From an uncultured Clostridia bacterium (GTDB lineage Bacteria > Bacillota > Clostridia > Christensenellales > UBA1242): a DNA stretch of 64,000 nt. The translations under genes were made by a program, and so were the position numbers. Below the pieces are notes generated by a model. It did no database searches, had not been told where the DNA came from, and saw only the letters and a program-made list of their open reading frames with translations. Of this stretch, positions 23,735 through 52,136 are shown in pieces (the first letter of the stretch is position 1; each line of letters starts with the position of its first letter). The DNA lies in contig CALWEZ010000001.1 of assembly GCA_944377455.1 (NCBI GenBank), positions 4,894 through 68,893 of the forward strand, written 5' to 3'.

Positions 23735-23820
23735 AAAACAAAAATATAAAAATCAAAAATAGAAAAAATATCAAAAAAATCATTAAAAATACAAAAAATA
23801 ATCAAAATTTAACCATTTTT

Positions 23821-23852
23821 GCCTTTATTTTTTAAAATAAAGGCATTTTTTA
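23821..23852 (+). terminator. Rho-independent terminator after the ATPase gene
   Basis: GCCTTTATT / AATAAAGGC 9-bp stem followed by a T-rich run. Confidence 0.65.
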
Positions 23853-24059
23853 TATATTTTTATTTTAATTTTAAAAATATTTTAATTATTTAATTTTTTA
23901 AGAATTTCAATTTATTTTTTATTTTTAATATATAATTTTTAATTATTTTTAATTTTTCTTTTATTTATTTTAATCAAACTTCTAAACAAATTTTCTTTTA
24001 ATGTCACATTACACAAAAATTGTGTTTACTTTTTTTTCTAGGTGTGATAAAATAACAAC

Positions 24060-25004: not shown

Positions 25005-25801
25005 AAGTTGTGGGAGTTAAGTTTAAAAACAGCAATCATATCTATTCTTTTTCGCCGAACAATTTAGACCTAAAAAAAGGCGACTACGTCATTGTGGAGA
25101 CTGAGAAGGGCAGAGATTTAGGCGTGATTGTTAAAGAAAAGTATGAAATAAAGGCGGAAGAACTGACAAGCGAACTTAAAAATGTGCTATATAAGGCAAC
25201 GGATGCGCAGGTGAAAAAGGCGGAAGAATATGACAGCGTTGCCGAAAAACTTTTGCCTAATGTTGTTGAGATTGTGAAATCGTTTAAACTTGACATGAAG
25301 ATTGTGAAAGTGGAAGCAAACTATGATAATAGCAAACTTATCGTGAATTTCACGGCGGAAAATAGGGTGGACTTTCGCGAACTCGTAAAAAAACTTGCCG
25401 AAACTTTCAAAACGCGCGTGGAACTTAGGCAGATTGGCAGTCGCGACGAAGTTAGGATGCTTGGCGGGTTTGGGCCTTGCGGAAAGATTTGTTGTTGCGT
25501 GCAGAATTTCGGCGAATTTGACCATGTCTCCATGAAAATGGCAAAAAATCAAAATCTATCACTCAACCCTAACAGCATAAGCGGACTTTGTGGAAAACTT
25601 ATGTGTTGCATTGCCTATGAAAACCAGACCTATGTTGAGTCACTTAAGGTTATGCCAAAGATTGGCGCAAGCGTTAAGACTAAGGACGGCGAAGGCGTTG
25701 TTGTCTATAATGACCTACTCGATATGCAAGTGGATGTTAAATTCTCAAATGGCGACGACAGCGAAATCAAGACCTTTGATTTAAGCGAAGTTAAGTTTTA
25801 G
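24995..25801 (+). CDS. ricT: PSP1-domain protein YaaT/RicT (stage 0 sporulation / RNase Y regulator family)
   Basis: Overlaps the holB stop by 10 nt; RBS GGAGG. Cys-rich GFGPCGKICCCVQNF...GLCGKLMCCIAYE is typical of the PSP1/YaaT family. Confidence 0.85.
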   Translation: MQIEVVGVKFKNSNHIYSFSPNNLDLKKGDYVIVETEKGRDLGVIVKEKYEIKAEELTSELKNVLYKATDAQVKKAEEYDSVAEKLLPNVVEIVKSFKLDMKIVKVEANYDNSKLIVNFTAENRVDFRELVKKLAETFKTRVELRQIGSRDEVRMLGGFGPCGKICCCVQNFGEFDHVSMKMAKNQNLSLNPNSISGLCGKLMCCIAYENQTYVESLKVMPKIGASVKTKDGEGVVVYNDLLDMQVDVKFSNGDDSEIKTFDLSEVKF

Positions 25802-33304: not shown

Positions 33305-34237
33305 ATGAAAACACTTTTGCAAAGATTATCAAAAAAGATTGAGCCTTGCTATCTCATTCAGGGCGAAGATATTTTGCTCTACGACAAGGCGCTTGAACTT
33401 ATCAAAAACGCCTGCCATTTGGAACTTGAAGAGTTTAATTTAATCAAGTTTGATGACGACAATTTTAAAACGGACACCGTTATCGATACACTTAACACTT
33501 TGCCAATGGGAAGCGAGAAAAAGGTGGTGCTATTAAAAAATTTGACAAAAATTCCAGAAGATTTCAAGAAGAAACTCAACGCCTATCTAAAGTCGCCACA
33601 GCCGACCACTTGCCTTGTTATATTTGATTTCTATAACAACTTCAACTTTATCATAAGCGAAAAGGTCAGCGCGAAAAGGTTGGATGAGCCATCGCTATCG
33701 AAAATTGTGGTGGCAGAACTTGAAAAGGCGGGCAAAGCAATCAACGCCGATGCTAAATCACTTCTATTGTCCTACTGCTGTGACTACTATTCACTCATAT
33801 TCAACGAACTTGAAAAGTTGAAATATTGCGACAGCGACGTGATAACAACAAAGGACATCGAAAGTTTAGTGACAAAAGAGACCGAGTTTTCAGTGTTTGA
33901 ACTAAGCGAAGCGCTTTCAAAACGCAATGTTGAAAAGGCGGTTGAACTTTTAAGCAAGATGGATAAAGACACCAAGACATTTTCGCTCATTCTCAACCAT
34001 TTTAGGCGTATGTTTTTCGTTGCCATATCGAAAGAAACTGACCAAGAACTATCAAAGGAGTTGTCGGTTAAAGAGTTTGCAGTGACCAAGGCGCGTGCTC
34101 TTTCTAAAAACTTTTCTAAAATACAACTTAAAAACATCTACGAACTCTTATCCGATGTCGACTTTTACATCAAAAATGGTCAAATGCAGATTGAAAACGC
34201 GCTATTTTACTTGATTTTCAGCATACTTTATGCGTGA
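33305..34237 (+). CDS. holA: DNA polymerase III delta subunit
   Basis: About 310 aa. The N-terminal ...YLIQGEDILL..., the position directly after comEC and the general delta-subunit pattern fit. RBS AAGGAG. Confidence 0.75.
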   Translation: MKTLLQRLSKKIEPCYLIQGEDILLYDKALELIKNACHLELEEFNLIKFDDDNFKTDTVIDTLNTLPMGSEKKVVLLKNLTKIPEDFKKKLNAYLKSPQPTTCLVIFDFYNNFNFIISEKVSAKRLDEPSLSKIVVAELEKAGKAINADAKSLLLSYCCDYYSLIFNELEKLKYCDSDVITTKDIESLVTKETEFSVFELSEALSKRNVEKAVELLSKMDKDTKTFSLILNHFRRMFFVAISKETDQELSKELSVKEFAVTKARALSKNFSKIQLKNIYELLSDVDFYIKNGQMQIENALFYLIFSILYA

Positions 34238-34372
34238 AAATCAAGAGTGAAGAGTTAAGGAAAGATTGTAAAAGTGAAGAGTTGTGGATGAGCAAACGCA
34301 AGTGTTTGAGTGAAGAGTGAAAAGTGAAGGGAAATCAAAAATTTCCAGTGAAGAGTTGTGGATGATTTTATA
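34238..34372 (+). repeat. Intergenic AGTGAAG-hairpin repeat array A
   Basis: Six GTGAAR motifs in about 135 bp, interspersed with hairpins CAAAC/GTTTG and GGAAAT/ATTTCC. AGTGAAGAGTTGTGGATGA occurs twice. Confidence 0.8.
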
Positions 34373-34403
34373 GCAAAAATTTTTAAATAAAAAGGAGAAA
34401 ACT

Positions 34404-35003
34404 ATGGAAGAAAGAGATTTAGAAGAACTGAAAGAAGAGTTCAAGGAGATTTATTTCGACAATATCGAGCGTGACGGAGCGGAGGACCTTTTGGAGTTTT
34501 TGGAGCGGTCTGACTTTTTTAGTGCACCGGCAAGCACGCGTAACCATTCGGCATACGAAGGCGGACTTTGTGAGCATAGCATAAATGTCTACAAGCGCTT
34601 TGTCAAACTTTTGGAAGCGGAGTATGGCAACTATGAAGAGAAGATTTCCAACGAAAGCGTGGCAATAATTGCTCTTCTTCACGACATTTGCAAGGTCAAT
34701 TTCTATGTTAAGGACTTAAAGAATGTGAAACGTGACGGCGTTTGGACGCAAGAACCTTTCTATCGAATTGAAGATAGTTTGCCATACGGTCATGGCGAAA
34801 AGTCGGTGTATATGATTTCTGGTTTTATGAGGCTGACGCGTGAAGAGGCGATGGCAATCAACTGGCATATGGGCGGTTTTGACCCGAGAATCAGAGAGGG
34901 CGGTGTTCGGCTCACCGATGTCTACTACCGCTATCCAATCGCCTTTCTCTTCCACATCGCCGACAACATGGCAACATACTTAGACGAAAAACCGACGAAA
35001 TAA
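34404..35003 (+). CDS. HD-domain metal-dependent phosphohydrolase
   Basis: FFSAPASTRNHSAYEGGLCEHS (His), LLHDICK (HD) and INWHMGGFD motifs. RBS AAAGGAG. Confidence 0.75.
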   Translation: MEERDLEELKEEFKEIYFDNIERDGAEDLLEFLERSDFFSAPASTRNHSAYEGGLCEHSINVYKRFVKLLEAEYGNYEEKISNESVAIIALLHDICKVNFYVKDLKNVKRDGVWTQEPFYRIEDSLPYGHGEKSVYMISGFMRLTREEAMAINWHMGGFDPRIREGGVRLTDVYYRYPIAFLFHIADNMATYLDEKPTK

Positions 35004-35322
35004 AAATCAAAGATTTTTAAATAAGAAAGAAGAAATAAAAAAGAAAAGTTGTGGAAGAGTTTTAAAGAGTGAAAAGTGAAAGAGAAGTTTTGCGACTTCC
35101 AGTGAAGAATTGTGGATGCTTTTAGAAAGTGAAAAGTGAAGGGAAGGCAAGCCTTCCAGTGAAGGAAAACCTGCGGTTTTCAGTGAAGAGTGGGCAAACG
35201 CAAAGCGTTTGAGTGAAGAACGAAAGAAAATCAAAGATTTTCAAGTGAAAAGTGAAGAGTTGTGGATGATTTTAAAAAGTGAAAAGTGCTTGTTCGCGGT
35301 GAAGGAAAGACAAAGACTTTTC
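35004..35322 (+). repeat. Intergenic AGTGAAG-hairpin repeat array B
   Basis: Twelve GTGAAR motifs in about 260 bp. Four consecutive units carry 7-bp stems of unrelated sequence with 2-3-nt loops, each followed by AGTGAAG: GGAAGGC/GCCTTCC, GAAAACC/GGTTTTC, CAAACGC/GCGTTTG and GAAAATC/GATTTTC. Confidence 0.85.
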
Positions 35323-35442
35323 ATTATAGATAATTTTAGATAAATTATGTATAAGGATGGAAGCCAACGAAGATAACAATTTTGAAAGTTTTATAAAGCC
35401 AAAAATTTCGCTTTAAATTGCACATTATTTTCAAAAAAGGTA

Positions 35443-35471
35443 TTGACACCGCCCGCGTTTTATTATATAAT
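35443..35471 (+). promoter_or_regulatory. Consensus SigA-type promoter of the 937-aa gene
   Basis: TTGACA, 17-nt spacer, TATAAT, located 33 nt upstream of the ATG at 35504. Confidence 0.65.
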
Positions 35472-35503
35472 AATAACAACAAAAAATAGGAGGTTTATGT
35501 TTT

Positions 35504-38317
35504 ATGGCAACTTTATTAGAACAAGTAAAAGAGGCTATAGAGAAATTTAAAACGGACGACAGTGTCATTAAAGCAAAAGGCGCTTCAGATAATTTGGTGG
35601 CGTATTTGGTTCCAGACACTTATGAAGTTAGCGATTTAAGGGGAAAAGTTTTAGTATATTGCCCACGGGCACAAGCAGGAAATAAATATCGAATTGCACT
35701 TCAAAGTACAGGTCCAAGGAAGGCTTTAGGTGATAAAACGCTTGAAGTTTCTTGTGTTATCTTGAAAGATGATATGACTTTAGGTAACCTAGAGAGTAGT
35801 GGAAGAACTAAAGTAATTATAAGCGGAAGCGGTGATAAAAAGAATAAGGATTTTAAAGATAGTGTAGATGCAATAGCAGATGCCCTAAAAATTGAAAAGA
35901 AAAAAAGCGCTAGTTCCGCAAACAAGTTTAAAGCATTTAATAAAGGACAAACTCCAGGACTTGTTCCAAAAGGCGATCCTGTATTGCACTATGATGGCAA
36001 AATGCTTGCACGAGAATATTTGAGAGGAATGCATGAAGAATTGCAAAGACAAAGCGCGGTGCCAGGCTCAAAAAGACGTAGCGGGCTTCCTAAATTTATT
36101 AAAGTGAATGGCAACGATGTGGTTGCAGGTTACTATGAATTTAAAGGCGTTCCTAACTCACTTATAAGTGATTTACCTGCAAAACAAAGAAAGTATGGTA
36201 ATTTTGCAAGAAGAGCACAGAGAAAAATGGTGTCTGATGAAAAAATAGATATTACTAACTCTAAGTTCAATTCTAAATCAAGCCAAGCCTGGGAAGAATA
36301 TAATGATGCACGTGAACAATATAATATGGCTGAAGACGAGGCGACTAAAAAGAAATGGCAGAAAAAGATGGATAAAGCGGAAGCGAGAGCAAAGGACGCT
36401 GGTTCGCCTATAGGTAAGTCAACAGTTAGGTTATATGTAAGCAAATATGCTGGAAACAACGGAAAACATGACCTTTATCTTCAAATAGGCAACAACCTTG
36501 CGCTTCCAACAAAAGATAATGACGGAAAAATCCTAGGAGTAAATAAGGTTAGTGAATTTACTCATGCAAAAGGCAAGAAAAATCTTGTTGTTGCAGTTGT
36601 ATATCCAAAGGCAAGCAGTAGAAATTCAGCCTTAACAAGCAATAATATGATTGTGTTTGGTGAGAATAAACCATTGCAAACATTGGTTAGCGAATGGAGA
36701 GAAGCAGAAAAAGATAAGAGCAAAACCGCATTCGCAGAACGCTTAGGGGGAGAAAATGGCTTGCCATATGAAACATACACCGCACTAGACAGCGAAAGCA
36801 ATGGCGACAAATATATTGAAAATGGCAGTCCAATCGTTAAGATTGGTGAGGCATTAAAATATGCTAAGGCTGGCGTTATAGGTGCAGTTTTAGGTGGTGT
36901 AGTTGCGGCAACAATAATAACTTCGCTAGGCGGTGGTCAAATTTCCGATAACATAAATAGAAGTGCAATAGAAAATGCAGCACGTGAGGGGTCATTAGCA
37001 CATATTTTTAACACTTTGGAAATTTCGGAAGAAACATATGGAAATGATTCAAATGGAATTGAGACTGCAAGCTTACCCGATACAAAAGGCAAGACATATG
37101 CAAATCTATTCAATTACACATCTTTAAACAACGAAAGTAATGTTATTATCGACACGGCTTCTGAAAGTGAGATTGAAAAGATGTTTAATTCAACCACGTA
37201 TGCTTCGACATTTGGTTATAACTATCAAACTGCCATTGATAATAACACAAACTATTTTGCTAGAGCGGCAGCTGGCAACATTATAGAAGGAATGGACTAC
37301 ACAGCTGAAGCAATTAGAGGAAGCTTTGAAGGATTAGGCGCAGCGGCAGGGCAGGAAATTGCTGAACATGGTGTTTCACTTGCCGAAGGTGATATTATAT
37401 ATCCTAACGGGACAAATAATTCTTCTTCATTTGAGGAACTTTTGAGATATAAAGGTCTGTCAAGGCAATTAGCAACTGAGGCAGTGGATGCATATTCAAA
37501 CGCCTTTGCGATAACATATGAGGAAAATTTAAATCAAATTGAAGCGGAAGTGCCTGAAGAAGATTTTGACTTGAATGACAGTCAAGGAAACTTGCAAGAG
37601 ACAGTTAATGCGATTACTGGTGATAACATTCTAATAGTAAATGTTCATTACAATGATTCCAAAAAAAATGGTGTTATCTATGGTATTAACGAAGAAGGAA
37701 ATTTAAAAGAAATATCTTTCGAAAACACCACAGATATTGCTGTGACTAGCGCGGAGGGTCTTGAAACTGCATTGTTGTCTGATCCTGAGCCAGAGATTAA
37801 AGAATATGCGTCTCTCGACGGTTTAATGTTTGATGATTATACGCGAAATAACATCTACAACAATTTGACTGATGAAAATGGCAGAATTTTCTACCAGATT
37901 ACAGGCGTTCCAACACACGACGAAGAAATTGAAGTAGAAACTGAAAACGAAAATGGAAGCACAACCACCTCCACAACCACTGTCACAATCAACGCTCACT
38001 ATGATACAGTTGTTGTGACTTTGGATAAAAATTTCAATGTTGACAAAGCAAGCGTGAATGTGTATTCTAACAGCGGAAAGACGGAGTCTAAGGAAGGCAT
38101 TGTTAAAACAGCGGTAAGTGAGATTACTGATGGTAAAGTTCCAGGTTCACCTGCTCTTTACACCTTAACTTCTGAAGAACCAGAAACTTCAAGTTATCCA
38201 AATCAACTAAGTCAAGAAAACATAGAACAAGCACAAGAAGCTTTAAGAGAAGAACTTTCTAATGAAAACACAAATGGCACTCAAATAGTTCCAGTGTCAA
38301 AAGAAAGAACCAGATAG
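35504..38317 (+). CDS. Orphan bitopic membrane protein (937 aa): basic cytoplasmic N-terminal half, single TM, acidic extracytoplasmic C-terminal half
   Basis: Long intact ORF with an AGGAGG RBS. No signal peptide. A single hydrophobic segment (AGVIGAVLGGVVAATIITSLGGG) lies near aa 455-478. The N-terminal half is K/R-rich and the C-terminal half is D/E/N/T-rich. No family recognised. Confidence 0.8.
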   Translation: MATLLEQVKEAIEKFKTDDSVIKAKGASDNLVAYLVPDTYEVSDLRGKVLVYCPRAQAGNKYRIALQSTGPRKALGDKTLEVSCVILKDDMTLGNLESSGRTKVIISGSGDKKNKDFKDSVDAIADALKIEKKKSASSANKFKAFNKGQTPGLVPKGDPVLHYDGKMLAREYLRGMHEELQRQSAVPGSKRRSGLPKFIKVNGNDVVAGYYEFKGVPNSLISDLPAKQRKYGNFARRAQRKMVSDEKIDITNSKFNSKSSQAWEEYNDAREQYNMAEDEATKKKWQKKMDKAEARAKDAGSPIGKSTVRLYVSKYAGNNGKHDLYLQIGNNLALPTKDNDGKILGVNKVSEFTHAKGKKNLVVAVVYPKASSRNSALTSNNMIVFGENKPLQTLVSEWREAEKDKSKTAFAERLGGENGLPYETYTALDSESNGDKYIENGSPIVKIGEALKYAKAGVIGAVLGGVVAATIITSLGGGQISDNINRSAIENAAREGSLAHIFNTLEISEETYGNDSNGIETASLPDTKGKTYANLFNYTSLNNESNVIIDTASESEIEKMFNSTTYASTFGYNYQTAIDNNTNYFARAAAGNIIEGMDYTAEAIRGSFEGLGAAAGQEIAEHGVSLAEGDIIYPNGTNNSSSFEELLRYKGLSRQLATEAVDAYSNAFAITYEENLNQIEAEVPEEDFDLNDSQGNLQETVNAITGDNILIVNVHYNDSKKNGVIYGINEEGNLKEISFENTTDIAVTSAEGLETALLSDPEPEIKEYASLDGLMFDDYTRNNIYNNLTDENGRIFYQITGVPTHDEEIEVETENENGSTTTSTTTVTINAHYDTVVVTLDKNFNVDKASVNVYSNSGKTESKEGIVKTAVSEITDGKVPGSPALYTLTSEEPETSSYPNQLSQENIEQAQEALREELSNENTNGTQIVPVSKERTR

Positions 38318-38320
38318 TTA

Positions 38321-38349
38321 AAAAGCATGCCGAAATGGCATGCTTTTTT
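38321..38349 (+). terminator. Rho-independent terminator of the 937-aa gene
   Basis: AGCATGCC-GAAA-TGGCATGCT hairpin followed by T6, with an A5 run upstream. Confidence 0.8.
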
Positions 38350-38441
38350 GTCTCTTATTTCAAAAATAATTCAAACCGAAAGAAAGATTAAAGGAGAAAA
38401 AATAAAAAAGAAGAATACAAACAAAAATAATCCTCTTCAAA

Positions 38442-38485
38442 GTTGCGACCAACTCACCAATGTAATGCGAGTTGCGTTTGGTCGC
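38442..38485 (-). repeat. GCGACCAAACG...GTCGC structured repeat, copy 1
   Basis: On the - strand it reads GCGACCAAACG-CAACTC-gcattacattggt-GAGTTG-GTCGC. About 33/44 nt are identical to the + strand copy at 39119-39162. Confidence 0.6.
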
Positions 38486-38560
38486 AAAAAAGAAAAAACA
38501 AGCAACAAATGAAATTTTGAAACTTGTTTTCAAAATGAATAATAAGCGCAGTTTTTTCTT

Positions 38561-38646
38561 TGGTGCGGATAACAGGATTTGAACCTGCATGAGATTGCTC
38601 TCACTAGGACCTGAACCTAGCGCGTCTGCCATTCCGCCATATCCGC
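38561..38646 (-). tRNA. tRNA-Leu (anticodon CAG), CCA encoded
   Basis: The reverse complement reads GCGGATATGGCGGAATGGCAGACGCGCTAGGTTCAGGTCCTAGTGAGAGCAATCTCATGCAGGTTCAAATCCTGTTATCCGCACCA. It has a 7-bp acceptor stem, anticodon stem CTAGG/CCTAG with loop TTCAGGT, a long variable arm and a GGTTCAAATCC T-loop. Confidence 0.93.
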
Positions 38647-38811
38647 ATAATCATATTTTTATATTATCGGAAGTTGAACCAAGCGCGACGAAGTCGCATT
38701 TGAGTGAGACTGATGGTCATACATACTATGTGATGAACACAATTTGTTATGTTTTTGCGTTTAGCAAAATTAAAATTTAACTTGCTTAAATTTTATCATC
38801 ACATAGTTTAT

Positions 38812-38840
38812 ATTATATCCATTTTGTTTTGCCTTGTCAA
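38812..38840 (-). promoter_or_regulatory. Consensus promoter about 160 nt upstream of tRNA-Leu
   Basis: On the - strand: TTGACA, 17-nt spacer, TATAAT. Confidence 0.55.
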
Positions 38841-38939
38841 GTCAACGCGAGATTTCGCACACTTTTCTCAAAACTTTTTCCGCTTTAGAATTCTTTTTTT
38901 AAATTTTAAATATCCATAATCATCATAAATAATTTATTC

Positions 38940-39300
38940 TCTAAAATCATCCCTATACTTTGGCTTATGCTATTGATGCAAAACTTATTTTCTCAAAACT
39001 TTCCACAACTCTTCACTGCGAACTGACGGTTCGCCTTCACTCTTGCGTCGCAAACGGCACTTCATTTCGTCTTTTGTCTTACGCCAAAAGCCTTATTATT
39101 CATTTATTTACTCCTTTAGCGACCAAACGAAAATCGCACTTCGTTGGCGATTTTGTCGCTGCTTAAAGTGGTTTCAATTAGAGCGACAACACTGCAGTCC
39201 AAAATCTTCCCTAACTCTTCACTGAAAACCGCAGGTTTTCCTTCACTGGAAGGCATGCCTTCCTTTCACTCTTCACTCAACACATTGCGTTTATTTGACT
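38940..39300 (-). repeat. Intergenic AGTGAAG-hairpin repeat region C, inverted relative to arrays A and B
   Basis: The reverse complement contains AGTGAAG-GCGAAC-cgtca-GTTCGC-AGTGAAGAGTTGTGGAA. It also contains GGAAGGCATGCCTTCCAGTGAAGGAAAACCTGCGGTTTTCAGTGAAGAGT, which matches array B at 49/50 positions. Confidence 0.8.
39119..39162 (+). repeat. GCGACCAAACG...GTCGC structured repeat, copy 2
   Basis: GCGACCAAACG-AAAATCGC-acttcgttg-GCGATTTT-GTCGC. The outer parts are conserved with copy 1. The inner stem has a different sequence but is still complementary. Confidence 0.6.
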
Positions 39301-39357
39301 ATTTCGTGTTTTTGGACTATAATAAGGTCAATATTAATCATTTTTTAGGAGCAAAAA

Positions 39358-39675
39358 GTGGATATAAATAAGAATTTTTTTGCAAATGTCTATGGTTTAG
39401 TTAAAAAAGTGCCAAAGGGCAAGGTGGTGACCTATGGCGAGATTGCGCGTGCGATAGGCAATAAGCGTATGTCACGGCAAGTGGGCTGGGCGCTTCATGT
39501 CAACCCAAAGCCTGGCGAGATACCGTGTCACAGAGTGGTCAACCGCTTTGGCGAACTCTCTTCCGCCTTTGCCTTTGGCGGAATAAACAGACAAGAAGAA
39601 CTTTTGAGGGACGAGGGCGTGGCTGTCATTGACGGAAAGGTGGATTTAGGAAAGTATGGATACAAATTCGATTGA
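39358..39675 (+). CDS. MGMT-family (methylated-DNA-protein-cysteine methyltransferase DNA-binding domain) protein
   Basis: GTG start preceded by AGGAG. VPKGKVVTYGEIA......R.VG.AL...........PCHRVV is the hallmark of the Ogt/Ada C-terminal domain. This is a 105-aa single-domain form. Confidence 0.8.
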   Translation: MDINKNFFANVYGLVKKVPKGKVVTYGEIARAIGNKRMSRQVGWALHVNPKPGEIPCHRVVNRFGELSSAFAFGGINRQEELLRDEGVAVIDGKVDLGKYGYKFD

Positions 39676-42369: not shown

Positions 42370-45300
42370 ATGCGTAGCCCAGAGAAAAGAGAACGAACAT
42401 TTTTATCGAAGATGTTTAGGACAATTTCAATCTACATGATAATTGCCCTATGTTCTTTTTTTAGTTATATTATGCTGTTTGGCGATGTCTCTTTCACGCC
42501 GACCTTACCAGGTAGTAATGTTGATGCTTCGGAAGACTCAAACATGAACAAACTTCTAAACGCCTTTATGGGCGCCGAAAATGTGACGGCGAATATGAAC
42601 ATATCTGTTGTCGGAAATGATTTGGATGTTGACTTGGATGTGGACGCCAAAGTCAACATGCAAAACTTTGATTTTGATGTAACTTTGAAAACCGCTCTTA
42701 ATGACACTTCGTATAACATCGAAATTTTTAAAAATAGCGAATTAGATAGTTTTCTTCATATCAATATAAATGATAGCCTTTTTAAACTCGACTTGAATGA
42801 AATTTCTTCTATGGAAGAGATTGATTTTTCCGCCTTGCTATCAAGTTTCAGTGGCGGAGAACAATTGAGCAGTATTTTAGATGCTGTCGGCACTGTTATC
42901 GGCGTTGATTTAACTGACCTTAGCATGGAAAATATAATGACAAAGTTAGAAATCGTTGAAAATGTCTCGGAAAATGCCTATCGTTTCACCATCTACTTTG
43001 GAAATCTGCGTTTGACACTCGATACCAGCGAAGATTTCAAAAATATGACGGCGTCTGTGAGAGAACTCACTGTCAATAACTACAAGATTAATTGCGCGAT
43101 TGACTCAATCACGCTTGACGACCAAAATTTTGACATCGACACCGAACCAGCAGGCGAAGAGTTAGACATCTCTTCTCTTCTAAAAATCGTGGAAAACGCA
43201 AAGTTAGATGATAATAGTTACGCACTATCTGGCGATGTTGTTGTTAAATATGACGGTAAGGAGTTAGCAGGCAGTGTTGGCGCGAAGATTGTTGATTCTG
43301 GAAATGGAGTGCTTCCATTTGTTCGCTTCAAGACAAATGTGGGCGGAGTTGACGCATATATCTACTATATCGACAACACCATTTATTTAAGCATTGAACA
43401 ACTCAATTTCAAATTTGATATTGACAATATTCCTGAAATCGAAAGCATTTTGGAAGAGTATAATATCAACTTGGATGTTGAGGCGCTCATGGCAGTCACG
43501 GTTGCTATGCCAACCTTTGAAAACTTCAATATCAAAGTTTTAGAAAATGGCTTTGAACTATCACTACAAGATGAAATCATTTTCGATGACACAATTTCAT
43601 TGAGTAATTCTAATATTACGCTTATAACAAAAACTATCGACGAAAATATCTTGCCAGACCTATTAAATCTAACAACAACTTTGACAATGGATGGAACTCC
43701 AAAAGAGGTCGGCGTGGAAATTTCAAACATCATGATAGGTCAAAGCACGCAATATCTATCCGATATGGAGTTAGACGGAAATGAGGTTTTAAATCTTAAC
43801 ACAAAGAGTGGCATGGTCAGTGTTCAAGATTATGTCGACCTAGCAAACTTTATAGACATCTTTAAAGTGGTTAAAGATGCCGAAAACATAACCTTTAACA
43901 TCGATGTTGAAATTGACGATTTACTCAAAGTGAGTGGCTTAGGAAAGTTTGACATTAAATCAATGAGTTTCAACCTAGATGTTGATGTGGATATCGACGG
44001 CTTGAAATTAAATATCTTCCTTTATGGCGAAGATATGTTAAATAGCCATGTGGTCTATGCAACAATCGGCGAGAAGAGTTTAAAACTCAACTTGGATGAA
44101 GCGAATTTGACAGAACTACTCACAGAGTTTGGCGTGAGCATGGACACGGCAAGTGCGCTTGACAAGGTCAGTGCCGAACTTGGAGTGGACTTTGAAAACA
44201 TCGATATTTTAGAGATATTAAAGAACTTGACCTTAACTGAGAGTGAAGAGAACGGCGTTTTGACCTACACAATATCCTTGCTTGCAAGCGAAAATGAAGA
44301 GTCAACCGCTATCAATTCAAATGAAGTTACAAGCAACGAAAATCTTATCGGCCTAATTCTAACTTACAACAAAAACACAAACACCTTTGGCTTGAATTTT
44401 GCTAAGAATATTTCAGGTTATGATATCACATTAAATGTCAGTGACCTTCAAATCAATGCAAGCGACTTTGCTTTAACAGCGCCAACTGGCAACGAAGAAG
44501 ACATCACACCAATCTTTGACATTGTGGAGAACGCAAAGGTTGAGAATGGATACGCTCTTTCAAGTGTGGCAACCATCACGCTTGATGATAAATCCTATCA
44601 GGCACGCATTTCGGCGCAGTTGCTAAAGAGCGGAAATGAATATTTGCCATATATTTCTCTTAGCACCGAGATTGAGGGTGTTAAGATAAATGCATACCTT
44701 GTTGAAGAAGAGATATATCTAAATGTCGAGAACTTGATGTTTGCAGTGAACATTAATGAACTTGATATTGAAGAACTTACAAACATTTTAGAAGAAGAAT
44801 TTAATTTAAGCGCTGACGCCATTGAGACGATAACCATTGCCATGCCAGCACTTGCCGACATCACAATTTCGGGCTTAACAAACGGCTTTAATATAAGTTT
44901 GGATAGCGAGATTGTGGTTAACGATAACCTTAAACTTTCAAACAGCGACTTAGACATCGTGACATATGCTGATAACGGCGTGATGGTTCTAGATTACATT
45001 CAAATATCCTCGCAACTTTCCGCAACTGGCAAAGCATATTCCTTGATATTTAAGTTAGACGACATCATGTTAGGCGAAGAGGCGGAAGGTTTAGACACAT
45101 TTGTATTCACTGACGGCAAGGTGACAGCAATCAACATCGACAACAACACAGTTCCAACCGACGACTTTGTTCGCGTGGAAAATCTACTTAAAATCTTCAA
45201 AGAGATTGTGGATGCTGAAAACTTAACCTTTAACATCGACGTTGAAATTGACGATTTACTCAAAGTGAGTGGCTTAGGAAAGTTTGACATTAAATCAATG

Positions 45301-48285
45301 AGTTTCAACCTAGATGTTGATGTGGATATCGACGGCTTGAAACTAAACATCTTCCTTTATGGCGAAGATATGTTAAATAGCCATGTGGTCTATGCAACAA
45401 TCGGCGAGAAGAGTTTAAAACTCAACTTGGACGAAGCGAATTTGACAGAACTACTCACAGAGTTTGGCGTGAGCATGGACACGGCAAGTGCGCTTGACGA
45501 GGTCAGTGCCGAACTTGGAGTTGATTTTGAAAATATCGACATTTTAGAGATATTGAAGAACTTGACCTTAACTGAGATTGAAGAGAACGGCGTTTTGACC
45601 TACACAATATCCTTGCTTGCAAGCGAAAATGAAGAGTTAACCGCTATCAATTCAAATGAAGTTGCAAGCAACGAAAATCTTATCGACCTAATTCTAACTT
45701 ACAACAAAAACACAAACACCTTTGGCTTGAATTTTGCTAAGAATATTTCAGGTTATGATATCACATTAAATGTCAGTGACCTTCAAATCAATGCAAGCGA
45801 CTTCACTTTAACAGCGCCAACTGGCAACGAAGAAGACATCACGCCAATCTTTGACATTGTGGAAGATATCAAGGTGGATGACTACACCTATGCAATCTCT
45901 GGCGATTTGGCAGTTAGATACAGCACAACCTCTTTCTATGGCGATATGCTTGCCATGATTGTGCGTAAGGGCGAGGAATATGTGCCATATGTTCGCGTCT
46001 ACACAAGCGCTATGAACATTGAAACCTATATCTATCTACTTGATGATGACATCTATCTTGACCTTCAAGGCTTAAGGCTCACTTTCAATTTATCAGAGTC
46101 GACCATAGATGAGATTTTGACATTTGTCAGCGATGACTTAAAGTTGACTATCTCTGGCATGGAAAATTTAACCGCCACATTTAATGTGATTTTACCAGCA
46201 CTAAATAGCATAAGCGCAAATTGGATTGACGGTGGCGTGCAAATCAATATCGGCGAAGATTTGAAATACACCGAAACCGCTAAATTTGCCGATATCGTTA
46301 TGCAAGCGTTCGGCGAAAGCGCAAACGGCAAAATCTATCCAACAAAAGTTGTGATAGGCGCAAACATAGTCGACCCTAACACCGACATCTATGATAGTTA
46401 CGAAGAGTGGTGGCTTGAAAATGAAGAGGCAATAACGAAAGATAAAAACTTTGCAATCTACCTTTCAAATGTGGCGATAGGAACGAACAGCCTGTTCATG
46501 GATGACATTGTCTTTGACGAACTAGGCAATGTTATGAGCCTTAAGGGTAAGGACGGCAAGTATTCCTTAAACAACTTTGAAAACATCAAGGGACTTTTAT
46601 CTCTTGCGAAAGGATTGCTTGATTATTTAAACAACGGCTCCTATTCTTATACCACTGAAGATATCACTGCCACGCTCTATAAACTTTCACTAAATGCAAA
46701 GTTGGGCAACACAGAATTCACAGACAGCAATGTTCTTGTGGAACTTGCGGAAGAGATTAACGCTGAAAATAAGGCGGAAGAAGATAGGAAGATTGTTTCC
46801 ACTTTGTTTGGTGGTAAGTCACTGAAGGTGCAAGGCGACATGAATATTACAACAACAAGCGTTTCAGAAGATAACACATCTACCACCACAGCACATGAGG
46901 CATCCATCTACTATAATAGCAATGAATACGAAGATGAGAATACCCCGAACACAAGCGGACTTTACATTACCTATGCACATGACAATTTCATAAATTCCGA
47001 CACAAAATTCCGTGGACATATAGAAAATGCTAGCATGAGTGACCTAATTGCCATGATTTTGGGAATAACGAATGTTAAACTTGACCCTGCAATACTCGAA
47101 AGTTGGGATTTGACCACTTCGTTTGAGCAGTCGACCACCGATTTCAGTTTCTTGCGTGAACTTATGGGCTTAAATAAAGAGGAAGGCGACGATGTTGTCA
47201 CAACTGTTGACTCCACACTTTTAAGCGTTTCCAACATTTTAAAGATGCTTGATAACATCTCTTTTGTGAACGAAGATAGCACATCCAGCCTTATCATCAG
47301 CATAGTTAGCGGAGAAGATGTTGGCAATTTAACAATCTTATTCACAAAAGAGATTGTAGATGGCGTAACAGTCTGCTCGCCAACAAGCATCAGTTTTACG
47401 CTTGGTGATATGTATGCAAACATCAACTTTGAATATGGAGAGCCAGCGGACGACCAACAGACAGACACTAACTCGAATGGAGTTCAAGATAACTTTGAAT
47501 TTACCTACAACACTTCAGCCACACATCACGACCTAAGCAGTCTGCCAGAGTTTATGGACATCGCAGTGAATAAAATAAATGAACGCACAATTAATCTAAG
47601 TGGGACTGCATATTTAAAAATACTTACTGATTTGACTGCTATAAATATTGATGTTGATGTGACAATTAACTTAGTAGATTTTTCAGTTGTGGCATATCTG
47701 AGTCCAGAAGCACTTATTGGCACAACTTATCTTGATAGAGTTTCAGCTTTCTTTGGAGAAACAACTAAGTATTCAACTATCGGAGAATATGATAAGAGAG
47801 TTTCAACGATAACTTTTGCGAAAGATGGTAATGGAGAATATATTTTGACAATTCACCAAGATACTGATGGTAGTGTTAAAGAATGGTCATACAAAACATC
47901 TGAAATGTTAGGAACTACAGACGGAACTTCAAATATTATTATCATCATGGCGCAAGCGATTGGTTTGACCGACAGTATGGTTGATTTAATAACTTGGGGA
48001 ATGGGCTTAATGGAACCTAATATTTCGTTGGAAGAAACATTACAATCATTCAATCGTAATACAGTTGAGGAAACCACCGAAAGTGGAACTATTGTAGAGA
48101 AATTGACTGGTTATACACTCGGCATTAAAGGCGAAACTCTAACTGGCACAAGTCTAATTGGCGATTTTGACCTTACTGTGGGCGTTAGCGAAAATAATGG
48201 AGAATATGCGTTATCCAACGTTGTTACCACCATGAAAATTTTTGCAAGCATGGTTACACTTGACCTTGATTTAGGCATATTGTGA
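42370..48285 (+). CDS. Giant (1971 aa) N-terminally membrane-anchored, beta-rich modular protein with an internal 445-aa repeat module
   Basis: RBS AGGAG. N-terminal TM segment ISIYMIIALCSFFSYIMLF. Three successive copies begin with the module (E)EDI(S/T)...(I/F)(V/D)IVE(N/D)(A/I)K...YA(L/I)S(G/S), at about nt 43160, 44500 and 45835. The gene starts 23 nt after the 322-aa gene. Confidence 0.85.
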   Translation: MRSPEKRERTFLSKMFRTISIYMIIALCSFFSYIMLFGDVSFTPTLPGSNVDASEDSNMNKLLNAFMGAENVTANMNISVVGNDLDVDLDVDAKVNMQNFDFDVTLKTALNDTSYNIEIFKNSELDSFLHININDSLFKLDLNEISSMEEIDFSALLSSFSGGEQLSSILDAVGTVIGVDLTDLSMENIMTKLEIVENVSENAYRFTIYFGNLRLTLDTSEDFKNMTASVRELTVNNYKINCAIDSITLDDQNFDIDTEPAGEELDISSLLKIVENAKLDDNSYALSGDVVVKYDGKELAGSVGAKIVDSGNGVLPFVRFKTNVGGVDAYIYYIDNTIYLSIEQLNFKFDIDNIPEIESILEEYNINLDVEALMAVTVAMPTFENFNIKVLENGFELSLQDEIIFDDTISLSNSNITLITKTIDENILPDLLNLTTTLTMDGTPKEVGVEISNIMIGQSTQYLSDMELDGNEVLNLNTKSGMVSVQDYVDLANFIDIFKVVKDAENITFNIDVEIDDLLKVSGLGKFDIKSMSFNLDVDVDIDGLKLNIFLYGEDMLNSHVVYATIGEKSLKLNLDEANLTELLTEFGVSMDTASALDKVSAELGVDFENIDILEILKNLTLTESEENGVLTYTISLLASENEESTAINSNEVTSNENLIGLILTYNKNTNTFGLNFAKNISGYDITLNVSDLQINASDFALTAPTGNEEDITPIFDIVENAKVENGYALSSVATITLDDKSYQARISAQLLKSGNEYLPYISLSTEIEGVKINAYLVEEEIYLNVENLMFAVNINELDIEELTNILEEEFNLSADAIETITIAMPALADITISGLTNGFNISLDSEIVVNDNLKLSNSDLDIVTYADNGVMVLDYIQISSQLSATGKAYSLIFKLDDIMLGEEAEGLDTFVFTDGKVTAINIDNNTVPTDDFVRVENLLKIFKEIVDAENLTFNIDVEIDDLLKVSGLGKFDIKSMSFNLDVDVDIDGLKLNIFLYGEDMLNSHVVYATIGEKSLKLNLDEANLTELLTEFGVSMDTASALDEVSAELGVDFENIDILEILKNLTLTEIEENGVLTYTISLLASENEELTAINSNEVASNENLIDLILTYNKNTNTFGLNFAKNISGYDITLNVSDLQINASDFTLTAPTGNEEDITPIFDIVEDIKVDDYTYAISGDLAVRYSTTSFYGDMLAMIVRKGEEYVPYVRVYTSAMNIETYIYLLDDDIYLDLQGLRLTFNLSESTIDEILTFVSDDLKLTISGMENLTATFNVILPALNSISANWIDGGVQINIGEDLKYTETAKFADIVMQAFGESANGKIYPTKVVIGANIVDPNTDIYDSYEEWWLENEEAITKDKNFAIYLSNVAIGTNSLFMDDIVFDELGNVMSLKGKDGKYSLNNFENIKGLLSLAKGLLDYLNNGSYSYTTEDITATLYKLSLNAKLGNTEFTDSNVLVELAEEINAENKAEEDRKIVSTLFGGKSLKVQGDMNITTTSVSEDNTSTTTAHEASIYYNSNEYEDENTPNTSGLYITYAHDNFINSDTKFRGHIENASMSDLIAMILGITNVKLDPAILESWDLTTSFEQSTTDFSFLRELMGLNKEEGDDVVTTVDSTLLSVSNILKMLDNISFVNEDSTSSLIISIVSGEDVGNLTILFTKEIVDGVTVCSPTSISFTLGDMYANINFEYGEPADDQQTDTNSNGVQDNFEFTYNTSATHHDLSSLPEFMDIAVNKINERTINLSGTAYLKILTDLTAINIDVDVTINLVDFSVVAYLSPEALIGTTYLDRVSAFFGETTKYSTIGEYDKRVSTITFAKDGNGEYILTIHQDTDGSVKEWSYKTSEMLGTTDGTSNIIIIMAQAIGLTDSMVDLITWGMGLMEPNISLEETLQSFNRNTVEETTESGTIVEKLTGYTLGIKGETLTGTSLIGDFDLTVGVSENNGEYALSNVVTTMKIFASMVTLDLDLGIL
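43876..44530 (+). repeat. Intragenic near-identical direct repeat, copy 1 (655 bp)
   Basis: Encodes DAENITFNIDVEIDDLLKVSGLGKFDIKSMSFNLDVDVDIDGLKLNIFLYGEDMLNSHVVYATIGEKSLKLNLDEANL... . The stretch is almost base-for-base identical to 45211-45865, at an offset of 1335 bp (445 codons). Confidence 0.9.
45211..45865 (+). repeat. Intragenic near-identical direct repeat, copy 2 (655 bp)
   Basis: Same as copy 1 apart from scattered substitutions, for example K/E in ALD(K/E)VSAELG, S/I in LTE(S/I)EENG, S/L in NEE(S/L)TAIN, G/D in NLI(G/D)LIL and A/T in SDF(A/T)LTAP. Confidence 0.9.
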
Positions 48286-51799: not shown

Positions 51800-51901
51800 T
51801 TATCCACAATAAATTTTTATACACATCTGTTTATCTTTATACATTGCATAAAAAAGTGGATAAAAGTGGAGAAATCCACATAAGTTATCCACATTTCCAC
51901 A
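51800..51901. promoter_or_regulatory. DnaA-box cluster
   Basis: Two perfect TTATCCACA boxes at 51800-51808 and 51885-51893. One-mismatch boxes: TTATACACA (51817-51825) and AGTGGATAA (51855-51863, reverse orientation). Three two-mismatch boxes lie at 51865-51873, 51872-51880 and 51893-51901. Very AT-rich DNA flanks the cluster to 52136. Confidence 0.6.
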
Positions 51902-52136
51902 TTGTTTTTTGAGTTTTTATACATTTTTCGCGCTTTTAAGCGTTTTATATCAAAAATTAATCAACTGCATTTTTGCATAAAGATAATAAACTATGCATAA
52001 AATAAAAGTTTTATAATTTACAATATTTTAAATAGCAAATTTGCATGTATAAAAATTCGTTATGAAAAGATAATTATATAATTAAAAACGATTTTTCTTT
52101 ATCAAATTGTCGCTGATTGCTTCTCTAATATTTTAA

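Follow-up and report, generated by a model that had tools for sequence, protein, structure and literature searches.

AGTGAAG-hairpin repeats form an apparently undescribed intergenic family in uncultured Clostridia

We examined a 64-kb stretch of DNA from an uncultured Clostridia bacterium (contig CALWEZ010000001.1; the whole stretch is referred to as the window, and its numbering is used throughout), and in particular the two non-coding stretches on either side of a gene encoding an HD-domain protein. Both stretches, here denoted arrays A and B, are built of a purine-rich heptamer, AGTGAAR, and short hairpins, and more units of the same kind are present on the opposite strand at a third place, locus C. 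We conclude that the units belong to a real, statistically solid and apparently undescribed repeat family, and not to a discrete RNA gene. In the reading that we tentatively favour, and consider a little short of probable, they would be lineage-wide mosaic intergenic repeats, similar in function to repetitive extragenic palindromes and bacterial interspersed mosaic elements (REP/BIME) or to BOX elements, co-transcribed as 3′ untranslated region (3′-UTR) or intercistronic RNA and acting in cis.

Motif abundance and unit anatomy

AGTGAAG is present in 27 copies in the window, against 8.05±3.1 copies (maximum 16) in dinucleotide-preserving shuffles, and 19 of the 27 fall in three intergenic clusters, A, B and C (Table 1). 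With the looser motif GTGAAR, dense clusters were found in the window at three places only, 34234-34348 (+; seven motifs), 35069-35299 (+; 12 motifs) and 39217-39271 (-), and locus C has two more AGTGAAG copies outside the last of these, at 39011 and 39035 (-). An earlier note on this DNA, made from the letters only, had described arrays of a conserved purine-rich linker and hairpins in non-coding DNA, and the counts, the clusters and the perfect inverted repeats confirm it; its count of 12 GTGAAR motifs in array B was correct, and its count of six in array A has to be raised to seven, the seventh overlapping the stop codon of holA. A fourth cluster (25211-25309), seen only with a looser clustering gap, was dropped, being three scattered GTGAAA within a coding open reading frame (ORF).

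In the window and the related loci, successive GTGAAR motifs are separated by 1 nt in 70 cases, that is, they are tandem heptamers, and the longer gaps peak at 17-19 nt (45 cases). A gap of 17-19 nt is filled by a stem of 7 bp, a loop of 2-5 nt and a single A, and the hairpin unit thus measures 23-25 nt, in agreement with the 23-24 nt and the 7-bp stem proposed before. Three building blocks were recognized: tandem copies of the heptamer AGTGAAR; hairpins of 16-19 nt, each with a stem of 7 bp and in every case bordered by a heptamer; and a distal terminal module, AGTGAAG-AGTTGTGGAWG-(N)-TTTTA. The tag flanking the hairpins reads (C)AGTGAAG(G) in essentially all units. As three tandem heptamers bring TGA into all three reading frames, insertion at the extreme 3′ end of a gene should be harmless. 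Regarding a longer submotif said to recur three times, this holds for the 19-mer AGTGAAGAGTTGTGGATGA, and not for the 23-mer AGTGAAGAGTTGTGGATGATTTT, which has two exact copies, at 34347 and 35251. Tandem Repeats Finder reported only fragments of heptamer runs in the window, because the hairpins interrupt the period.

Stem pairing and covariation

A covariance model (R1), with 31 positions and a 7-bp helix, was built from 36 aligned units. At E<0.03 and with the filters off, it matched seven units in the window, all of them in clusters A, B and C and on the GTGAAG strand, and none in coding DNA; the units are strictly intergenic. The same search detected 39 units in 201 kb made up of the window and related loci from metagenome-assembled genomes (MAGs).

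Covariation was examined on the 33 distinct rows of the model-fitted alignment with 500 partner shuffles. Paired cells amounted to 87.3%, compared with 68.4±1.7% after shuffling, and doubly changed cells to 54, compared with 17.3±4.0, a value reached by none of the 500 shuffles, with the caveat that a model-fitted alignment leans towards structure. Compensatory changes were found in six of the seven stem pairs, sliding the 3′ partner by 1-3 columns lowered the pairing to 26-56%, and a looser set of units gave the same picture. In 46 hairpins registered by hand, 299 of the 322 stem positions were Watson-Crick pairs, the others being 8 G·U, 8 A·C and 7 of other kinds. The strong covariation of the stems supports the earlier proposal of selection on structure, be it in RNA or in DNA, in so far as pairing is kept as the sequence changes.

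Every stem named in the earlier note is present and perfectly complementary, including GGAAAT/ATTTCC and GCGAAC/GTTCGC, with GAAGT/ACTTC lying within 35084-35099. Four consecutive stems of array B had been taken as unrelated in sequence. Their complementarity is indeed perfect, and unrelated they are not: about 15 stem classes were identified that form a series with single-base-pair steps between neighbours (GGAAGGC, GGAAGTC, GGAAATC, GAAAATC, GAAAACC and so on), and two of the four stems are copied in locus C. Loops differ within a stem class and the stems stay intact, as in the GGAAGGC class, where identical stems carry the loops AA, AT, AAA, AGA and GA.

No known family was matched. Against Rfam at gathering thresholds, nothing but tRNAs and an unrelated Gut-1 match was obtained for the window and 14 related loci, and at a permissive E-value nothing was found on the arrays in 34150-39400. 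In the literature searched, including the top-ranked work on intergenic heptamer and stem-loop repeats, no description of an AGTGAAG-hairpin motif or family was found.

Position, orientation and transcription signals

Approximately 13-15 of the 23 arrays considered lie behind a co-oriented gene, and about nine independent arrays start between -10 and +33 nt from the stop codon of the co-oriented upstream ORF. The stop TGA itself is inside the first heptamer in three arrays (those behind holA, in L009 and on the minus strand of L017) and inside the second heptamer in L012. The arrays at gene ends are in sense orientation, and only two that abut a gene end do so in antisense, both in tight convergent spacers. 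In L017, arrays are found on opposite strands, each behind its own gene, so orientation tracks transcription and not replication. The inverted array pairs in L011, L016, L024 and L026 occur because convergent genes each carry their own array. Three arrays are located between divergent genes.

A promoter and terminator scan revealed no strong promoter or terminator of the arrays' own, either within them or at their borders, and the consensus promoters near the arrays belong to neighbouring genes. Neither holA nor the HD gene has a canonical terminator, and the arrays fill that space; the only canonical terminator nearby (38320-38348) is behind the gene for a 937-aa protein. AGUGAAG, and not a U-tract, comes after each hairpin on the sense strand, which speaks against terminator arrays, one of the roles first suggested. 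A single unit passes the terminator scan, on the antisense strand (35157-35142, tail CTTCACTTTT).

Dispersal and block-wise turnover

Four further metagenome contigs carry the gene for the HD protein. Two metagenome assemblies that are independent of each other (L001 and L002) have arrays A and B in identical form, and a third (L003) has the same array B, which excludes an assembly artefact. Array A in L003 and L004 is 50 nt shorter, with a different hairpin (GAACGCC...GCGTTC), more heptamers and unchanged flanks; the differences between strains come in 7- and 24-nt steps. In L029, from MAG E14__bin171, identity to the window is 89% in the HD gene and 97.5% in the next promoter and gene start, and both arrays flanking the gene have other hairpins in another order. 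As a separate observation, the low-coverage contig L004 (1300-1593), compared from 35191 onward, matches the window as far as ...CAGTGAAGAGT in array B and then continues with TGTGGAAGAG and unrelated DNA, which reflects a genuine rearrangement at the repeat or else a chimera created there during assembly.

A 64-nt segment of array B (35128-35191) is repeated in part 1 of locus C with 95% identity, and the array B hairpins at 35142-35181 fall within it; by their sequence, the hairpins common to the two places are duplicated copies, not independent inventions. At the orthologous locus C site of a related species (L020) only AGTGAAG-AGTTGTGGAAGG is present, whereas in the window about 258 nt more are inserted exactly between AGTGAAG and AGTTGTGGAAGG, with AGTGAAG on both sides. 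This block consists, in order, of two heptamers, two hairpins, a degenerate end module, a 135-nt segment denoted module Y, a further hairpin and AGTGAAG. Positions 39272-39036 of the window are 81% identical to 2433-2680 of L017, an unrelated locus of MAG E14__bin171. Among four close strains, no variation of locus C was detected. Judging from these comparisons, the arrays are dispersed and modular, stable in the short term and rebuilt block by block in the longer term, with breakpoints at the heptamer.

To follow the family further, a genome collection was scanned with the 18-nt AGTGAAGAGTTGTGGAWG, for which about 35 chance matches are expected in 596 Gb. The signature was present in several MAGs labelled uncultured Clostridia, among them E14__bin171 (10 matches), BRZ_PH__bin59 and BRZ_EH__bin128, and the units are consequently not confined to one locus, a point that the earlier note had left for checking. 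High-GC coding matches (L006, L013-L015, L021, L023, L025, L027, L028 and L033) were set aside as chance. Heptamers and AGTTGTGGAWG followed by a hairpin, often a true terminator, were found in Clostridia-type MAGs with GC contents of 0.30-0.63 and on one IMG/VR contig; in L012, L031 and L032 they lie between the stop codon and a canonical terminator.

The plain triple heptamer is found more widely, on at least 120 unrelated metagenome contigs (L035-L154) with GC contents of 0.31-0.72, none of which has hairpin units. It is not specific to the lineage and is not evidence of homology. On these contigs, plain AGTGAAG arrays have 3 to 27 copies, often straight after stop codons and often beside other tandem heptamers (AGTTGAG, ATAATTC, CAGCTAA and AACTAGA); an inverted (CTTCACT)n is often found 30-60 nt downstream, with which a long hairpin would form, and the junction GTGAAGAATTTGCTNCCGC recurs. 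This suggests that heptamer repeats at gene ends are a much wider, little-described phenomenon.

Two other dispersed elements were observed with the arrays. Module Y (AAACCACTTTAAGYAGCGAC...GTTTGCGACGCAAG, window 39042-39174, -) has further copies in L017 (2543-2680), L011 and L034 and a truncated one in L029; it has nested stems (AGCGAC/GTCGCT and ATCGC/GCGAT), is preceded by a -10-like box and travels with the arrays. Its reading as a small ORF was rejected, the frame not being conserved between the window and L017. The other, module X, is conserved and about 215 nt long (L010:4100-4315, +), with at least nine copies in the sampled loci, also in L005, L008, L016, L017, L018, L024 and L026. 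It has the outline AAACCACTTT..CCACAACGC..CTCTTAATCAATTTTTGATTTTGCGAGGGG..GGAAACCAACGGAGTAGCGGTTAGGAAAATTTT..GTTGGTGTCCGCACC, contains several inverted repeats and has a -10-like box immediately before it. In most cases it stands behind an array, whose TTGTGG end module is complementary to the start of module X, CCACAAC. Module X is not consistently upstream of a co-oriented ORF and gave no Rfam match even at E<5, and it may be an unannotated structured RNA or a miniature inverted-repeat transposable element.

Interpretation and rival explanations

In the reading that we favour, we infer that transcription of the upstream gene most likely extends through the arrays, making them 3′-UTR or intercistronic RNA, and that their short stem-loops, spaced by single-stranded AGUGAAG linkers, would act in cis against 3′-to-5′ exonucleases or as processing boundaries, stabilising the RNA and tuning the stability of the upstream message. 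The stems may be kept paired by selection, or by hairpin-templated correction. Whole blocks are gained, lost and exchanged at heptamer boundaries, and also copied between loci, perhaps through heptamer-mediated slippage or recombination, or through insertion 3′ of a heptamer. Among the roles that the earlier note listed, a 3′-UTR stabiliser appears to fit best, on positional grounds; its structural inference was right, and its more exotic functional options are not supported.

Several points weigh against this reading. About eight of the 23 arrays, including locus C, have no co-oriented upstream gene, and a crude heuristic for ORFs served to assign the gene ends. Because the compared units are paralogues, the shuffle test overstates their independence. 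Overall, G·U pairs equal A·C mismatches (8 versus 8) and there is no general G·U excess that would bespeak RNA-level selection on the sense strand; in the stem interiors there are four G·U and no A·C, which are too few to tell the strand, or RNA from DNA. Several A/U-rich stems, e.g. GAAAAUC/GAUUUUC, would be only marginally stable as RNA, and the folding of whole arrays is unremarkable on the sense strand (z of -1.9 for array B and 0.05 for array A) and reaches a z of -4.95 on the antisense strand of array B, the z-scores being uninformative on the functional strand.

It is also conceivable, if rather unlikely, that Clostridia have a system of a tag plus any hairpin, in which a conserved factor reads the single-stranded AGUGAAG linker and AGUUGUGGAWG end module and an arbitrary 7-bp stem. 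Such a factor could act on RNA or on single-stranded DNA (ssDNA), and could use these elements as 3′-end or processing signals, or mobilise hairpin cassettes without a RAYT. This would fit both the 18-nt signature with heptamers in MAGs of such different GC content and on a viral contig, and the persistence of arrays at orthologous sites while their hairpins are swapped.

The units could instead be miniature ssDNA transposable elements of the REP/RAYT or the IS200/IS605 (PATE) type, for which an HUH/Y1 transposase encoded elsewhere would read the hairpin, cut by AGTGAAG and insert 3′ of an existing tag, generating direct arrays, with stem pairing conserved because the transposase needs the hairpin. 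An unpaired conserved tag with a small hairpin is the REP layout (PMC3733652), and IS200/IS605 elements, which need hairpins, enter 3′ of a particular tetra- or pentanucleotide and do not duplicate the target (PMC7290912). Likewise, the ~258-nt block of locus C is placed exactly 3′ of one AGTGAAG and has AGTGAAG as its own end, unrelated loci have blocks in common, and G·U as frequent as A·C would be expected if DNA rather than RNA matters. We nevertheless regard this as unlikely, since the tag differs from GTAG and CGTC and the units are direct and not alternating, since at least 15 stem sequences coexist in one genome, and since arrays are oriented as the adjacent gene is, even where a locus has them on both strands, which lagging-strand targeting alone would not lead one to expect. 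REP classes are usually homogeneous. Furthermore, no Y1, RAYT or HUH signature was seen in about 230 kb of window and lineage loci by a crude regular-expression scan, which is not decisive. A cognate RAYT gene typically has REPs on its flanks; one ORF flanked by inverted arrays (L026, 4484-5395) belongs to no Pfam family. A neutral origin without function, in which heptamer microsatellites slip, palindromes arise and are kept perfect via template switching or hairpin-templated repair, and copies then spread by gene conversion, would account for the plain tandem AGTGAAG and the many other tandem heptamers in unrelated contigs (GC 0.31-0.72), for some hairpins that resemble an inverted heptamer copy (GTGAACC...GGTTCAC), for weak A/T-rich stems being no less perfect than strong ones and for mismatches without strand asymmetry. 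It seems improbable, however, in view of the arrays kept at orthologous positions on both sides of the HD gene at 89% identity with their content turned over, of the 18-nt AGTGAAGAGTTGTGGAWG with preceding heptamers common to Clostridia MAGs (GC 0.30-0.63) and one viral contig, of the strong preference for sense orientation at gene ends, and of stems that are conserved while loops vary.

Binding at the DNA level was considered in two forms, heptads for a small DNA-binding protein and TGTGGATGA modules that would titrate DnaA by serving as weak DnaA boxes. Cooperative binding to 7-bp heptads is a property of the omega repressor of pSM19035, and CTTCACT resembles its WATCACW heptad; the strict 7-bp period in both orientations, the presence of some arrays just upstream of promoters and the single mismatch between TGTGGATGA and the DnaA-box complement TGTGGATAA, in five modules flanking the HD gene, point in the same direction. 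A simple site, however, needs no compensatory changes at stem positions 5-6, the hairpins, at 17-19 bp, break up the register of the heptads, no protein was identified as a candidate binder, and perfect DnaA boxes (TTATCCACA) are elsewhere (51432, 51800, 51885 and 59882), which together leave this explanation very doubtful. The one that we find hardest to credit is a trans-acting sponge RNA of CsrB/RsmZ kind that titrates a protein, a role listed in the earlier note, or an independent small-RNA gene. The layout, with repeated single-stranded purine-rich linkers between hairpins, is in its favour. GGA does occur at some linker-stem junctions (GAAGGGA, GAAGGA) and in stems, but it is absent from the loops (AAA, TGC, GTT); the arrays have no promoter or terminator of their own and no Rfam match even at a permissive E-value, and the copies, of varying content, are scattered over many gene ends as 3′-UTRs or spacers.

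Features of the window and neighbouring genes

The features of the arrays and of locus C are listed in Table 1. Upstream (5′) of the HD gene (34404-35003; 199 aa, Pfam HD) are a ComEC-like gene and then holA (33305-34237), and downstream (3′) is the 937-aa ORF (region 35443-38317), which has no Pfam domain and stands behind a TTGACA-17-TATAAT promoter at 35443 (12/12 consensus). A second very large ORF, 42370-48285 (1971 aa), is likewise essentially Pfam-less, with a sub-threshold B5 match only. Locus C is flanked by a tRNA-Leu and by a gene with an MGMT DNA-binding domain, and sits between divergent promoters; tRNA-Leu(CAG) has a promoter with a 12/12 match to the consensus (38840-38812, -) some 165 nt upstream of it (region 38647-38840), and its leader has a long inverted repeat, GTGATGAT...ATCATCAC.

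Table 1. Repeat clusters, arrays, hairpins and modules identified in the window
Feature	Positions	Strand	Remarks
Cluster A	34234-34370	+	Intergenic AGTGAAG cluster
Cluster B	35045-35322	+	Intergenic AGTGAAG cluster
Cluster C	38991-39277	-	Intergenic AGTGAAG cluster
Array A	34234-34370	+	From holA stop (TGA 34235-34237, inside the first GTGAAA) to ribosome-binding site/ATG of the HD gene (34404); 7 GTGAAR motifs, 2 hairpins, 2 AGTTGTGGATG modules
Hairpin CAAAC(GC)-AAGT-GTTTG	34293-34308	+	Array A; CAAACGC class, one G·T wobble
Hairpin GGAAAT-CAAAA-ATTTCC	34330-34346	+	Array A; covariance-model match 34323-34353, E=9e-8
Terminal module AGTGAAG-AGTTGTGGATGATTTTA	34347-34370	+	Distal end of array A; this type also closes most arrays in related loci
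Array B	35045-35322	+	Starts 42 nt past HD-gene stop (35003), ends ~120 nt before the 35443 promoter; 12 GTGAAR motifs, 5 hairpins, 3 TTGTGGA modules
Hairpin GAAGTT-TTGC-GACTTC	35084-35099	+	Array B; AGAAGTC class, T·G wobble at top; covariance-model match 35075-35107, E=1.3e-5
Terminal-module variant AGTGAAGAATTGTGGATGCTTTTAGAAA	35101-35128	+	Array B
Hairpin GGAAGGC-AA-GCCTTCC	35142-35157	+	Array B; perfect inverted repeat
Hairpin GAAAACC-TGC-GGTTTTC	35165-35181	+	Array B; covariance-model match 35158-35188, E=4e-8
Hairpin CAAACGC-AAA-GCGTTTG	35195-35211	+	Array B; covariance-model match, E=0.007
Hairpin GAAAATC-AAA-GATTTTC	35226-35242	+	Array B; covariance-model match, E=0.0013
Terminal module AGTGAAG-AGTTGTGGATGATTTTAAAAA	35251-35278	+	Array B
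Locus C part 1	39199-39277	-	Two heptamers, two hairpins, degenerate terminal module AGTTAGGGAAGATTTTGG
Hairpin GGAAGGC-AT-GCCTTCC	39248-39263	-	Locus C part 1
Hairpin GAAAACC-TGC-GGTTTTC	39224-39240	-	Locus C part 1
Module Y, AAACCACTTTAAGCAGCGAC...GCGACGCAAG	39042-39174	-	~135 nt, inside locus C between hairpin units
Locus C part 2	38991-39041	-	AGTGAAG, hairpin, AGTGAAG, terminal module AGTTGTGGAAAGTTTTGAGA
Hairpin GCGAAC-CGTCA-GTTCGC	39018-39034	-	Locus C part 2

Elsewhere in the window, overlapping, very A+T-rich tandem repeats with periods of 8-44 nt were noted at 760-1056 and 23696-23971, and gene orientation, GC skew and AT skew all change sign near 48-50 kb. Two of the four perfect DnaA boxes are in the spacer between hisS and a helicase gene, beside short tandem repeats (51852-51903), and the gene adjoining them is hisS and not dnaA. 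The Rfam scan of the window reported no T-box leader upstream of hisS or metG.

Some other candidates were tried and rejected. A replication origin or DnaA-box cluster does not agree with TGTGGATGA modules that are dispersed one per array, the perfect boxes being elsewhere. The minus-strand ORFs at 34241-34444 and 35007-35234 are artefacts of a repeat that is stop-free on that strand. A Cheo/LexA box has another spacing than the GAAC-N5-GTTC stems. As to a DNA uptake sequence, the nearby comEC is probably coincidental and the density of the motif (about 1 per 10 kb) is low.

Implications

To our knowledge, REP/BIME-type hairpin repeats are well studied in Proteobacteria, poorly known in Firmicutes and essentially unknown in uncultured gut Clostridia. 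The design seen here is unusual, with direct arrays, a 7-nt linker with stops in all three frames and many covarying stem variants, and it offers a natural data set for asking whether selection on hairpins acts at the RNA or the DNA level. If the arrays set the stability of mRNA 3′ ends, they would constitute a genome-wide layer of expression tuning in these organisms; if they are mobilised, an enzyme yet to be found would be implied. On the practical side, metagenome assemblies break at such repeats, which can also pass for small RNAs or CRISPR-like arrays, and a covariance model of the AGTGAAG-hairpin units would be useful for annotation.

Comparison with known systems

Three definitions do not apply to the arrays. 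They are not CRISPR arrays, as the conserved element has 7 nt and not ~28-37 nt, and the variable parts are self-complementary and recur at other loci; they are not intrinsic (Rho-independent) terminators, given that no U-tract follows the hairpins on the sense strand; and they are not of CsrB/RsmZ type, having no transcription unit signals of their own and loops such as AA, AAA, TGC, GTT and TTGC, without GGA.

With PATEs, which are derived from IS200/IS605, the arrays have in common that they are non-coding, bear hairpins, would be inserted 3′ of a short sequence and have no inverted terminal repeats; PATEs, however, are ~270 nt long with left and right ends derived from the insertion sequence (PMC7290912), in contrast to the 24-nt unit here. 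In the sampled loci, no parent insertion sequence or transposase for the arrays was seen. The ~258-nt block of locus C has hairpins near both its ends, and recombination between heptamers would give the same pattern as the insertion of a PATE.

Intergenic tandem heptamer repeats include the cyanobacterial STRR heptamers. The TAACTGA heptamers, intergenic and tandem, are reported from Beggiatoaceae, Cyanobacteria and Bacteroidetes (PMC4679880). Like TAACTGA and STRR, the arrays are tandem 7-nt direct repeats at many intergenic loci in which the repeat contains stop codons. The TAACTGA repeats have another heptamer and are mostly just upstream of start codons, and no intercalated covarying hairpins are described for them in the abstract (PMC4679880). 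With 70 adjacent heptamer pairs, the arrays belong to the descriptive class of intergenic tandem heptamers, which is not a homologous family, and the hairpins are an addition to it.

The BOX elements of Streptococcus pneumoniae are modular boxA-boxB(n)-boxC repeats with modules of 45-59 nt. They resemble the arrays as a Gram-positive modular intergenic repeat with variable internal modules, distinct ends, predicted stem-loops and differences between strains, but the modules here have 7 and 17 nt, no sequence similarity is seen, and the hairpins are diverse and not copies of one boxB.

REP/BIME elements are similar in more respects: a small (20-40 bp) extragenic palindrome in many copies, here made of a 7-nt tag and a palindrome of 16-19 nt; a conserved tag, left unpaired, at one end; mosaic clusters with a content that differs between related genomes; and a location mostly downstream of genes, between unidirectional or convergent ORFs, with hairpins that plausibly form in RNA. 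Most REPs are indeed found downstream of coding regions and are believed to function as RNA, and they are defined by an unpaired GTAG or CGTC tag and units of mostly alternating orientation (PMC3733652). The tag here is AGTGAAG, and the units run head-to-tail on one strand, inverted arrays occurring only as separate arrays of convergent genes. On these two defining features, tag and orientation, the units are not REPs, and the strict REP/BIME identity offered by the earlier note does not hold; they differ also in having many stem classes per genome and in their host, an uncultured Clostridia lineage.

Stem-loops that process or stabilise transcripts in Clostridium are single and locus-specific, and not a dispersed family with a common linker motif (PMC4423207). 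The likeness is in their position and proposed role: they are found directly after stop codons, they are proposed to protect the upstream RNA, and 3′ and intercistronic stem-loops set transcript stability and ratios within operons in that genus (PMC4423207), to which array A, lying between holA and the HD gene, offers a parallel.

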